Origin: a virus
Length of the DNA: 11,502 bases
Virus record (IMG/VR): IMGVR_UViG_3300006226_000583
Strand: one strand, 5' to 3'
Part shown: in pieces, positions 9,439 through 10,520 of the stretch
Layout: every line of letters starts with the position of its first letter
Position numbering within the stretch: the stretch's first letter is position 1
The notes under the pieces: model-generated
What the model was told of the DNA's origin: nothing
Databases searched by the model: none
Seen by the model: the letters and a program-made list of their open reading frames with translations, nothing else
Position numbers and translations under genes: made by a program

Positions 9439-9528
9439 CACCTTCGTTGATTTTTTAGGGTGGGGTTGGACGGTAGCGGGTGGCACAAAGGTTACCCCAA
9501 ACAACACTAACACACAGGAGATAGACAG
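9439..9528 (+). promoter_or_regulatory. Conserved promoter/5'UTR module, type I (CACCTTCGTTG-ATTTTTT-AGGGTGGGGTTGGACGGTAGCGGGTGGCACAAAGGTTACC...CTAACACACAGGAGATAGACAG).
   Basis: About 85% identical over about 90 nt to the module at 10436-10520, including the SD context. TTGGAC resembles a -35 hexamer. Confidence 0.5.
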
Positions 9529-10134
9529 ATGAAAATCACAATCACAGCACAGAACGTAGGGCGCACCGACGGTATCGCACTCAAAATTATCAATCGCCTT
9601 TGCGGAGATGTAAACGGGACGCTCAAGGCGAATACAGGCGACCAGGTAGAAATCGCCACTAAAGCGAGAGCCCCTAAAGTTCTCCCGGTGCTTGCCAGAG
9701 AAATAGCAAGATTGCTCGAAGAGGGCAACGGTATCACGGTAAGCATCGAGACTGGTGGCAAGCACACCACTATCGTAAAAATCACGGATGAGCAGGCAGT
9801 GGCGTTGAAAGTAGCCAGTGATGCACGAAACGAGGCAGACGACGCTTTTTACAGCGCATCGGATGTTGTTAGGGGGTTTGAGTCTCAAGTGATAATTGGC
9901 GGATGCCCTGTGCCTAGAATTACTGAAGTCCTTCAAAAAACGGGTGGGGCGCAAGTGGCAGCCGAGTTCAACGGACACGTTGAAGCAATCCATTCTCTGA
10001 TTGCAAAGTACAACGCACAGGCGGTCGCTGAATTGGCGGAGGCGAAAGCAGAGCGGGATAGACTGCGAAGCGCATACTACTCGCTACGTGGCGGGATTTA
10101 TCAGGAGATCGCTGTTGAGCAGATGGAGTTATAA
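9529..10134 (+). CDS. Hypothetical protein, 201 aa.
   Basis: Strong SD CAGGAG with a 7-nt spacer and a conserved 5'UTR. The antisense 201-aa ORF at 9388-9993 is rejected. Confidence 0.65.
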   Translation: MKITITAQNVGRTDGIALKIINRLCGDVNGTLKANTGDQVEIATKARAPKVLPVLAREIARLLEEGNGITVSIETGGKHTTIVKITDEQAVALKVASDARNEADDAFYSASDVVRGFESQVIIGGCPVPRITEVLQKTGGAQVAAEFNGHVEAIHSLIAKYNAQAVAELAEAKAERDRLRSAYYSLRGGIYQEIAVEQMEL

Positions 10135-10147
10135 GGTTTATAATTGT

Positions 10148-10208
10148 CATTGCCCCCTAACAGGGGCTTGTGGCAGTAGTGAGTCGTTTACTCAAAGGAG
10201 AATTAAGT
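10148..10208 (+). promoter_or_regulatory. Conserved upstream module, type II (CATTGCCCCCTAACAGGGGCTTGTGGCAGTAGTGAGT...AAAGGAG).
   Basis: AGGGGCTTGTGGCAGTAGTGAGT is shared with the modules at 3438 and 11112. It contains a small hairpin CCCCT-AAC-AGGGG. Confidence 0.45.
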
Positions 10209-10412
10209 ATGACCAGTATTAATAAAGTGGTGTTGTGGCAGTATCGGGACAGAGATGTTTTACCGCAGGGAACTGTATATTATGGACACCTGTTGTACGA
10301 GTACAAATGGCGAACCGGTAAGACGCTGGACGAATGCCGTGCCGATGTACGACGGTGGACGTTCAACGACTGGTACAAAAATGGCTATATTACCGAACCT
10401 GAAAAAGACTAG
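10209..10412 (+). CDS. Small hypothetical protein, 67 aa, a paralogue of the 11175-11372 gene. The start is at the internal ATG with SD AAAGGAG. The ORF track start at 10170 lacks an RBS.
   Basis: Shared motifs with the paralogue: LLYEYKWRTGKTLDE/MLYDYKRWSKKTLDE, RRWTFNDWYK/RGWTCIDWYK, and C-terminal EPEKD followed by a stop embedded in the palindromic repeat. Confidence 0.6.
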   Translation: MTSINKVVLWQYRDRDVLPQGTVYYGHLLYEYKWRTGKTLDECRADVRRWTFNDWYKNGYITEPEKD

Positions 10413-10432
10413 GGGGTCGGGTGACACCCTAG
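10409..10432. repeat. Palindromic hairpin repeat (CTAGGGGGTC-GGGT-GACACCCTAG). The TAG stop of the upstream gene forms part of the stem.
   Basis: 10-bp stem with one mismatch. Stop codon at 10410-10412. Confidence 0.65.
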
Positions 10433-10435
10433 TCC

Positions 10436-10520
10436 CACCTTCGTTGCTTTTTTGCGAGGGTTTTGGACGGTAGTGGGTGACACAAGGTTACCTAAACACT
10501 CTAACACAAAGGAGATTCAC
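10436..10520 (+). promoter_or_regulatory. Conserved promoter/5'UTR module, type I (a duplicate of 9439-9528).
   Basis: CACCTTCGTTGCTTTTTTGCGAGGGTTTTGGACGGTAGTGGGTGACACAAGGTTACCTAAACACTCTAACACAAAGGAGATTCAC. Confidence 0.5.

Follow-up and report, generated by a model that had tools for sequence, protein, structure and literature searches.

The window analysed here is an 11,502-nt stretch of the virus record IMGVR_UViG_3300006226_000583, and near its 3′ end it carries two similar intergenic segments, A1 (9439-9528) and A2 (10436-10520), which precede the plus-strand genes of a 201-aa protein (cargo 1, 9529..10134) and a 186-aa protein (cargo 2, 10521..11081). The original prediction had put the identity of the two segments at about 85%. 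Global alignment of 9439-9531 with 10436-10523 gave 76 matches in 94 columns (81%, or 87% of the ungapped columns) and a score of 52, against -17.5 ± 5.5 for shuffles (n = 2000; z = 12.6), confirming the resemblance, and blastn aligned 84 nt at 82% identity (E = 1e-14). The likeness begins just past the upstream gene, covers the whole intergenic stretch to the ATG rather than a short promoter hexamer, and ends at the coding sequence. Alignment of the two cargo ORFs yielded 53% identical columns, a figure without a shuffle control that is taken to be background. The encoded proteins proved unrelated, as had been proposed, since homology between them was rejected by both BLASTP (E = 0.54) and profile-profile comparison with hhalign (probability 0.1-0.15%).

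Cargo 1 is an ORFan matching neither Pfam nor PHROG, and a search of 1.84 billion representative proteins gave it one homologue (P0123, 65% identity). Cargo 2 is a member of the DUF6927 family (Pfam PF21992, E = 1.8e-8) and has 431 homologues of 41-76% identity; matches to it were found in 304 plasmid records, 185 of which are conjugative.

Hairpins delimit the two loci. The gene at 9026-9340 is followed on the plus strand by a long hairpin (9342..9397, inverted repeat I7) with 26-nt arms of 85% complementarity, whose core CTAGGGTGTC-CCCC-GACACCCTAG (9358-9381) is flanked by A-run and T-run arms, and which is likely a bidirectional terminator forming the left border of unit 1. The border between units 1 and 2 is the plus-strand hairpin GACTAGGGGGTC-GGGT-GACACCCTAGTC (10407..10434), and unit 2 is followed by the variant TAGGGTGTC-GGGG-GACCTCGTTGTACCCCACATGTTTTTG together with about 90 nt more (11370..11502, plus strand, inverted repeat I1). 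Hairpins of the form AGGGTGTC-NNNN-GACACCCT occur six times, including those at 9360 and 10411 and the variant at 11371, against 0.03 expected. The 11370..11502 element faces outward at both ends of all three contigs assigned to the same element (the window, L017 and L030, about 28 kb in total); an inverted copy lies at 98-136 of the window, and the two ends of L030 are 99% identical to the element. Every contig terminates in inverted repeats at least 120 nt long, and such repeats bound every gene block.

The hairpin repeat was thus rightly recognized, but each hairpin-to-hairpin interval holds two genes and not the single one that had been supposed, namely a cargo and a small gene with a module copy of its own. 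The small genes, encoding 67 aa (10209..10412, plus strand, with its stop codon inside the stem of the next hairpin) and 65 aa (11175..11372, plus strand), are paralogues (BLASTP 52% identity, E = 2e-14) whose family has no relatives beyond the window among 5.8 billion proteins. The local layout is a tandem two-gene unit: a module and its cargo come first, then a second module with one of the paralogous genes (65-67 aa), and a hairpin closes the unit. Between the two units the first gene has been exchanged.

A1 and A2 are two of at least 14 copies of a module family; the window alone holds six, and the three contigs together 14-15. A strict 38-nt pattern matched four sites in the window (3420, 6492, 9441 and 10438) with none expected, and two further copies, at 10147 and 11092, lie outside this pattern. 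A covariance model likewise recovered 14-15 copies in about 28 kb, all on the plus strand. Every copy lies on the coding strand and has either a start codon or an RNA gene at its 3′ end. The full-length copies number nine and show a mean column identity of 78%; behind them, nine different ORFs are found on the three contigs. The duplicated promoter and 5′ UTR module of the original prediction is hence a real repeat, yet it is not a one-off promoter duplication but a member of a dispersed, composite terminator/promoter/leader family.

Directly before CCTTC stands an upstream stop codon or hairpin end. A module is made up of five elements: a stem-loop containing G·U pairs and followed by a short T run (2-4 T), an invariant TTG, a box TTKKGRYRGTAG usually ending 30 nt past the TTG start, a 7-bp leader hairpin with compensatory changes, and a CA-rich tract leading through a Shine-Dalgarno (SD) site to the ATG. 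In A1 (9439..9528, plus strand, covariance-model match of 83 bits) these are the stem-loop CACCTT/AGGGTG (9439-9462) with TTG at 9447-9449, the box GTTGGACGGTAGCG (9465-9478), the leader hairpin GGGTGGC/GTTACCC (9478-9484 with 9491-9497), the CA-rich tract (9498-9516) and the SD GGAGA (9517-9521). A2 (10436..10520, plus strand, 89 bits) is built from the stem-loop CCTTCG/CGAGGG (10438-10460) and the TTTT behind it, TTG (10444-10446), the box TTTGGACGGTAGTG (10462-10475), the leader hairpin GGGTGAC/GTTACCT (10475-10493), a CA-rich tract (10494-10510) and an SD (10511-10515).

Of the copies preceding the small genes, B1 (10147..10208, plus strand, repeat family D3) is a short variant weakly matched by the covariance model (E = 0.26), with the stem-loop GCCCC/GGGGC (10152-10167), the box TTGTGGCAGTAGTG (10168-10181), the leader hairpin TGAGT/ACTCA (10180-10194) and an SD (10195-10201). 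B2 (11092..11174, plus strand, 73 bits) is full length, with the stem-loop CCCTTGC/GCAGGGG (11097-11117) and the TTTT behind it, the box TTTTGGCAGTAGTG (11118-11131), the leader hairpin GAGTGGCA/TGCTACTC (11131-11149) and an SD (11162-11167). The remaining window copies are both on the plus strand. One precedes the gene at 6566-6850 (6490..6565, covariance-model E = 3e-4) and has the canonical leader hairpin GGGTGTC-ACCC-GACACCC; the other (3420-3457) directly follows a canonical hairpin at 3398-3417 (element 3398..3500, E = 0.009). What follows the latter copy is not a protein gene but an 809-nt ORF-poor region. For the gap at 3322-4130, ARAGORN made no tRNA or tmRNA call with default settings, and the calls it made at low thresholds were implausible.

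Both stem-loops bear the marks of RNA structure. In the leader helix 98% of cells are paired, with both-sided changes in three of the seven pairs and G·U pairs on the sense strand only, and in the upstream helix 81.5% of cells are paired, again with compensatory changes; these covariation counts include shared ancestry, since all copies stem from two relatives and the three contigs of a single element. None of 500 shuffles reached the observed percentage paired or the covariation score of the two helices jointly, pairing fell to 47-56% in slid registers, and the module hairpins vanished on the minus strand. The proposal that the conserved leader is an RNA regulatory element accordingly holds for a simple 7-bp leader hairpin with covariation and for little beyond it: Rfam covariance models matched nothing at E ≤ 1 across the whole window, and the folding energy of the modules is ordinary (z -0.4 to -1.6). 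A riboswitch or other known RNA was rejected on the same two results.

In the putative promoter part, the distance between the conserved single-stranded blocks is largely fixed; the TTG-to-GTAG span is 30 nt in 12 copies on the window, L017 and L030 and 29 nt in two more. The fixed spacing could partly reflect common descent rather than function, since a TTG at the expected distance is absent from the B-type copy on a relative, L037, and two copies deviate by their 29-nt spacing. Reading TTGGAC as a -35 element failed. With either TTGGAC or TTGC in that role no acceptable -10 lies at 16-18 nt, the conserved box is not sigma-70-like, and a sigma-70 scan called none of the module copies; the best -10 candidate, YRGTAG, lacks by our reading the T at its last position (-7). 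Sigma-54 was rejected by eye as well, TGGCAG being present but the GC element standing at the required distance in no copy, and none of the sigma-32, sigma-28, ECF, Bacteroidetes-type and T4 MotA-box consensus sequences known to us fitted when compared by eye. Because the box matches, by eye, no sigma or phage-polymerase consensus that we know of, it is called a promoter on grounds of position and analogy. The available contigs yielded no single-subunit RNA polymerase. TGCTT is present in 3 of 14 copies, and TAnnnT is absent at the right distance (consensus from PMC4122927).

Comparison with relatives located the breakpoints. A 76% homologue of cargo 2 on L035 has no module, and similarity is limited to the ORF, while a 56% homologue on L036 is preceded by a different upstream half but still has GGTAG, the leader hairpin, CTAACACA and an SD. 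Homologues of cargo 1 on L037 and L038 (63-65%) stand behind a different repeated module, with homology beginning 32 nt 5′ of the ATG, and are followed by a B-type box that would drive an unrelated 69-aa gene. The breakpoints relative to L035, L036 and L037 coincide with module borders, in a small sample of three contigs and three relatives. Since the same cargos are found in relatives with another module or with no module in front, modules and cargos, judged from sequence comparison, reassort. This, together with the nine ORFs on three contigs, bears out the description of a portable expression module ahead of unrelated genes.

The metagenomes behind Ga0099364 and ERZ27257348 are so far the sole sources of the element. 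A search of 50,697 phage records gave no near match; viral contigs scanned for DNA patterns returned none or single matches at chance level, and a protein-based scan of them found nothing. A genome-contig scan gave three matches, at chance level, and 21 of 23 matches in a metagenome scan looked like chance. The nearest MVP-protein relatives (L042-L044, 55-57% identity) are without the module. No T4 core genes were seen on the 28 kb available, where a virion structural protein was matched weakly (phrog_771, 1.3e-5).

We consider it probable that an uncultured phage-like element has a composite regulatory cassette, dispersed and specific to its lineage, of which both segments are copies. Five functions are proposed for this cassette. 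The stem-loop with its 2-4 T would terminate or attenuate transcription arriving from the upstream gene, and termination may be weak because the T runs are short. A promoter outside the sigma-70 class, made up of the invariant TTG and the box TTKKGRYRGTAG(Y)G that usually ends 30 nt after the TTG start, would overlap this stem-loop and presumably be read by a phage-directed sigma factor, activator or polymerase. The 7-bp hairpin starts 2-3 nt past GTAG, which would place it at the mRNA 5′ end or close by, where it most likely shields the transcript from decay or, alternatively, could serve as a protein-binding site; in B1 only 30 nt separate GTAG and ATG, and transcription must therefore start near GTAG if the module is a promoter. 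The unstructured CA-rich tract (AACACTAACACA) and the strong SD (GGAGA) would favour efficient translation initiation. Finally, cassettes of about 90 nt and 75-90% identity scattered among many small accessory genes may supply portable homology, and the breakpoints suggest that recombination at them duplicates, deletes and swaps the genes in between. The window would then display one recombination outcome, a tandem two-gene unit with a differing first gene.

A different reading, which we regard as rather unlikely, takes the modules not as promoters but as intercistronic RNA processing or stabilising elements of a long polycistronic transcript, like the RNase III sites of T7, with the box as a nuclease or RNA-binding-protein site and the hairpins as protective ends. 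The sense-strand G·U pairs and compensatory changes in both helices indicate selection at the RNA level, so that the upstream helix must be transcribed from upstream; all genes are moreover co-oriented, and the box resembles no known promoter. The stems of 5-8 bp are, however, too short for RNase III, and unpaired blocks that stay at a largely constant distance over 30 nt, with a variable stem-loop in between, are typical of DNA recognition. One copy also follows a strong terminator-like hairpin and heads a non-coding region, and at the orthologous position on L037, ahead of the cargo 1 orthologue, the place of the module is taken by AT-rich repeats that look, by eye only, like sigma-70 promoters.

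Ordinary tandem duplication of a roughly 1-kb two-gene segment, whose first gene diverged past recognition and whose module is not portable, would account for the period of about 960-1000 nt, the identical order of parts in both units, the paralogous small genes, and the 75-96% identity of the small-gene 3′ end and hairpin between units. We hold it to be quite improbable as the full explanation. Cargo 2 is a member of a widespread family and cargo 1 an unrelated ORFan (hhalign probability 0.1%), so one cannot have diverged into the other and replacement must have occurred; the module also precedes seven further unrelated ORFs on other contigs, and relatives have the cargos behind other modules. 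A duplication probably did happen, yet it leaves the family unexplained.

It is very improbable that the palindromes are DNA operators through which a dimeric phage regulator coordinates repression of the accessory genes, like the stoperators of mycobacteriophage L5, with the leader "hairpin" as a protein-binding inverted repeat over the start site: the canonical stem GGGTGTC/GACACCC is conserved in sequence and not in structure alone, is found again in the diverged relative L036, in 4 copies and around another loop, and sits just after the box or at gene ends, but the arms are not DNA-symmetric in most copies (GGGTGGC/GTTACCC pairs only through G·U), and quite different arms still pair (GGGCGGC/GTCGTCC, GACGGCA/TGTCGTC, GAGTGGCA/TGCTACTC), a combination that fits RNA structure and not one sequence-specific operator.

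Read as composite cassettes, the modules have their closest known analogue in the PeSL (promoter-early stem-loop) and PmSL cassettes of T4-like phages (Arbiol et al. 2010, PMC2839356; Comeau et al. 2014, PMC4122927). In both systems a short repeated intergenic cassette runs from the upstream stop codon through the promoter to the SD and start codon, with a stem-loop between, over or just after the promoter boxes; the cassettes are concentrated before small ORFans in variable regions and, where related phages differ by insertions, deletions or replacements, mark the breakpoints. PeSL stem-loop sequences are likewise lineage-specific, and a non-early promoter variant (PmSL) is known. The modules differ in that their promoter part fits neither sigma-70 (TTGACA-N17-TATAAT) nor the MotA-box middle consensus, the element carrying them is not evidently T4-like, each copy has two stem-loops, of which the second covaries and keeps a fixed distance to the box, and the leader contains a conserved CA-rich tract. 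Promoter and terminator activity and mini-circles have been demonstrated for PeSLs (PMC2839356, PMC4122927), whereas the present modules are known from sequence alone.

The moron-like architecture of the original prediction, by comparison, did not stand up. As in the morons of lambdoid prophages, every cargo comes with a putative promoter of its own and a hairpin downstream, and these accessory genes are mutually unrelated. Morons, however, are individually acquired with mutually unrelated signals and often deviant base composition, whereas here one native signal family is repeated, cargo GC (0.50-0.51) lies within the range of the three neighbouring genes measured (0.48-0.53), and PeSLs are the closer analogue. 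The T7 class III promoter and gene 10 leader comprise a promoter, a 5′-end stem-loop that stabilises the mRNA, an unstructured spacer, a strong SD and the ATG; the module shares this order of parts, but its box is more degenerate than T7-group promoters and there is no sequence homology. Cluster A mycobacteriophage stoperators are asymmetric 13-bp repressor sites in many short intergenic copies. They resemble the modules in their number along the genome and their fixed orientation relative to transcription, and differ from them in that the repeats here are stem-loops with covarying arms.

A bolder combination, rather unlikely when all its parts are taken jointly, would see in TTG and the box TTKKGRYRGTAG the signature of a promoter class that is new and phage-specific and has a phage-made reader. 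One candidate reader is a 69-aa protein consisting of sigma-70 region 4 only, itself encoded behind one module on L030. The sequence-conserved GGGTG(G/T)C 5′ hairpin would then be a phage-protein site for coordinate control of stability or translation across the whole accessory set, and the cassettes and inverted repeats a dedicated gene-shuffling architecture. If the cassette reading is true, the PeSL principle, by which one short repeated cassette insulates and expresses each accessory gene and supplies homology for swaps, would extend past T4-like phages to an uncultured lineage and to a non-sigma-70 promoter class. The finding changes no major open question; its use would be practical, in that a compact alignable motif with about 15 copies could serve to locate transcription units as well as variable regions on related contigs from metagenomes, and help to identify the transcription factor reading the box.

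The genes behind the modules include ORFans, the DUF6927 protein and the truncated sigma, and the module-bearing contigs also encode Lar-like proteins and methylases. Such a set is where anti-defence genes would be expected, so the cassette could serve as a practical flag for candidate genes. As a separate observation, the 201-aa protein was compared with two roughly 200-aa proteins on L017, and the similarity was borderline only (E = 0.08, 0.01 and none).

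Two segments of the window, 9439-9528 (A1) and 10436-10520 (A2), had been predicted to be copies of one promoter/5′ UTR module of about 90 nt standing before two unrelated ORFs. Alignment of 9439-9531 with 10436-10523 gave 76 matches in 94 columns (81%; 87% without gaps), with a score 12.6 SD above shuffles, and blastn gave 82% over 84 nt. The similarity extends beyond a promoter hexamer: it starts (CACCTTCG) directly behind the upstream gene or hairpin and stops at the ATG. The ORFs behind A1 and A2 match in 53% of alignment columns, a value taken as background without a shuffle control. 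BLASTP (E = 0.54) and profile-profile comparison (probability 0.1-0.15%) both show their products, of 201 aa (cargo 1, 9529-10134) and 186 aa (cargo 2, 10521-11081), to be unrelated. Cargo 2 belongs to DUF6927; it has 431 homologues and is matched in 304 plasmid records, of which 185 are conjugative. Cargo 1 has one homologue among 1.84 billion representative proteins. The hairpin repeat said to bracket the cassettes, AGGGTGTC-NNNN-GACACCCT, was counted six times where 0.03 would be expected. On the strength of the alignment, the unrelated products and the hairpin counts, the observation therefore stands.

In outline the original prediction had understood the feature correctly, but it overlooked a second small gene in each unit. 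This gene lies between the cargo and the following hairpin (10209-10412, 67 aa; 11175-11372, 65 aa; 52% identity to each other), each time behind a shorter copy of the module motif (B1, 10147-10208; B2, 11092-11174). The region thus consists of a two-gene unit repeated in tandem, in the order hairpin, module A, cargo, module B, small gene and hairpin, with a period of about 960-1000 nt. Between units, the 3′ end of the small gene and the hairpin are 75-96% identical and the A modules 81%; the non-coding parts are kept and the first gene is wholly different. A sigma-70-like sequence at 10115-10144 (TTGAGC-N18-TATAAT, 10/12 matches), in the 3′ end of cargo 1 and directly upstream of B1, may be due to chance.

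In all six copies in the window a TTG precedes the box TKKGRYRGTAG-NG, and the span between the first T of that TTG and the last G of GTAG is exactly 30 nt. The strict 38-nt pattern matched at 3420, 6492, 9441 and 10438 (0 expected), and scanning metagenome contigs with it gave 23 loci. Two of these, L017 and L030, come from a single sample (Ga0099364), have several repeats in common with the window and hold eight additional module copies; the remaining 21 showed no further similarity to the window. Nine full-length copies aligned across all 93 columns with a mean identity of 78%, and a covariance model built from them detected 14-15 copies within about 28 kb, every one lying on the coding strand and ending at a start codon, as well as one in the diverged relative L036 (E = 2e-5). 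The nine ORFs behind full-length copies had no significant mutual similarity, three giving borderline scores only; a short variant copy in L017 precedes a paralogue of one of them. The ORFs include a 69-aa protein made solely of sigma-70 region 4 (L030 3740-3949; Pfam Sigma70_r4, 6.4e-16; PHROG sigma-factor families), a candidate modifier of -35 recognition. It stands behind an A-type module with a perfect GGGTGGC/GCCACCC leader hairpin and without a Shine-Dalgarno (SD) site.

Every module copy folds as two small stem-loops. The upstream one, whose 5′ arm is rich in C and whose 3′ arm is rich in G, covers the TTG and the spacer and is followed by 2-4 T. The leader stem-loop, of 7 bp, starts 2-3 nt past GTAG; its stem is usually GGGTGGC/GTTACCC, with the canonical GGGTGTC/GACACCC in some copies, and a CA-rich tract (AACACTAACACA), GGAGA and ATG follow in that order. 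In the nine-copy alignment, 98% of cells were paired in the leader helix, where three of seven pairs had changes on both sides (e.g. GGGCGGC/GTCGTCC and GAGTGGCA/TGCTACTC), and 81.5% in the upstream helix. For the two jointly, none of 500 shuffles equalled the real alignment in pairing or in covariation score, and pairing dropped to 47-56% when the register was slid. Because both helices include sense-strand G·U pairs and are lost on the opposite strand, we concluded that both are selected as coding-strand RNA. Transcripts of the preceding gene therefore read through into the upstream helix, a requirement for a terminator or attenuator. The proposal of an RNA regulatory element in the leader held as far as the covarying 7-bp hairpin, and not beyond: an Rfam search of the window gave no match, folding energies of the modules were ordinary, and the leader is a simple hairpin rather than a complex riboregulator.

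The main alternative to a promoter is that the module is an RNA-processing site. We favor a putative promoter because the unpaired blocks are conserved and largely fixed in their spacing, because of where they lie, and because one copy comes after a hairpin at the head of an 809-nt non-coding stretch. In B1 the distance between GTAG and ATG is only 30 nt, so that the start would lie near GTAG. A sigma-70 scan called none of the module copies and listed TTGACT-N17-TAGGAT at 6892-6920 as a candidate; further candidates were seen by eye in other parts of the window and in relatives. The box is unlike a sigma-70 promoter, and to our knowledge it fits no sigma, activator or phage-polymerase consensus.

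In anatomy and behavior the module is like the promoter-early stem-loop (PeSL) cassettes of T4-like phages, which comprise a stop codon, a promoter, a stem-loop between or beside the promoter boxes, an SD and a start codon, are found in hyperplastic regions upstream of ORFans and bring about indels and replacements (PMC2839356; PMC4122927). One defining feature is absent: the putative promoter is of neither the sigma-70 early nor the Mot-box class. No T4 core gene was seen in the 28 kb of this phage. By analogy, the module would thus work like a PeSL, but as a variant rather than a member. The feature is real, ordinary in principle and new in detail, namely in its putative different promoter class, second covarying hairpin and conserved leader. 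Likeness to a moron is weaker, as the control signals all belong to a single repeat family native to the element, and the cargos match their surroundings in GC content.

Breakpoints relative to the relatives lie at module borders, indicating independent combination of modules and cargos. In L035, which shares its sample with L001, the cargo 2 homologue (76%) lacks the module and DNA similarity lies only inside the ORF; there the gene adjoins an MT-A70 methylase and a gene whose faint Pfam match is Tad2-like. The cargo 2 homologue of L036 (56%) keeps GGTAG, the hairpin GGGGTGTC-ACGA-GACACCCC, CTAACACA and the SD, and its different upstream half is part of that contig's own repeated motif (CTGGTCRAA..CGYTCGYYTGT..GTAA), one copy of which precedes a tRNA-like sequence. 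The canonical stem of the window, here with another loop (GGGTGTC-ACGA-GACACCC), occurs in L036 in four copies (164-660, 2319-2418, 5082-5289 and 9904-10000). The stem sequence is therefore conserved across lineages and the promoter half is not. The sole cargo 1 homologue (L037/L038, 63-65% identity) is preceded by another repeated module, which is AT-rich and looks sigma-70-like by eye; homology to the window begins 32 nt upstream of its ATG, and downstream of the gene lie a B-type hairpin and TTTCGGCAGTAG, driving an unrelated 69-aa gene. In L037 this AT-rich intergenic module (105-195, 763-917 and 1788-1929), with the palindrome TTATAAAA(C/T)ATTTTATAATTAAA and TTTTGTAAAATTTCTTTT, precedes three consecutive genes, one of them the cargo 1 homologue.

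The element is phage-like, as judged from its co-oriented, often small genes, a weak match to a virion structural protein and a gene set with an HNH/NUMOD endonuclease, two Lar-like proteins, a Dcm methylase and a ParB-PAPS reductase fusion; no near relative was found among phage records. The accessory genes (L017 7185-7637 and 9968-10318; window 5514-6491 and 7875-9029: Lar-like twice, Dcm-type cytosine methylase, ParB-N/PAPS-reductase fusion) suggest anti-restriction functions. The major-vault-like protein (836 aa, 502-3012), with major-vault-protein shoulder and repeat domains, is widespread in bacterial MAGs; its nearest homologues (55-57% identity) lie on phage-like contigs without the module. 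It has 39% identity to proteins of huge uncultured phages (LR756500/1/3) and >5800 homologues, many of those listed lying on large bacterial-MAG contigs.

The three module contigs carry the same outward-facing element at both ends (window 98-136 and 11370-11502; L017 1-135 and 10944-11065; L030 1-103 and 5413-5531), composed of TAGGGTGTC-NNNN-GACCTCGTT(G/A)TACCCCACA..TTTG plus 80-100 nt; its core was not found in viral or genome collections. The arms are nearly identical to each other within L017 and within L030, and those of L030 are 99% identical to the right end of the window. Inverted repeats of at least 120 nt thus flank each gene block and are the points at which the assemblies break; they may represent large palindromic junctions, invertible segments or termini. 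The ORF-poor 809-nt gap at 3322-4130, with a hairpin and a module copy at its head, gave nothing with ARAGORN or Rfam. Two T-arm sequences like those of tRNAs occur in it, GTGGGTTCGACTCCCAC and GTGGGTTCAACTCCCAC, the latter followed by TTGGAGT-G-CCA with a possible 5′ partner, ACTCCGA, near 3510; the gap may represent a large tRNA-like or tmRNA-like RNA.
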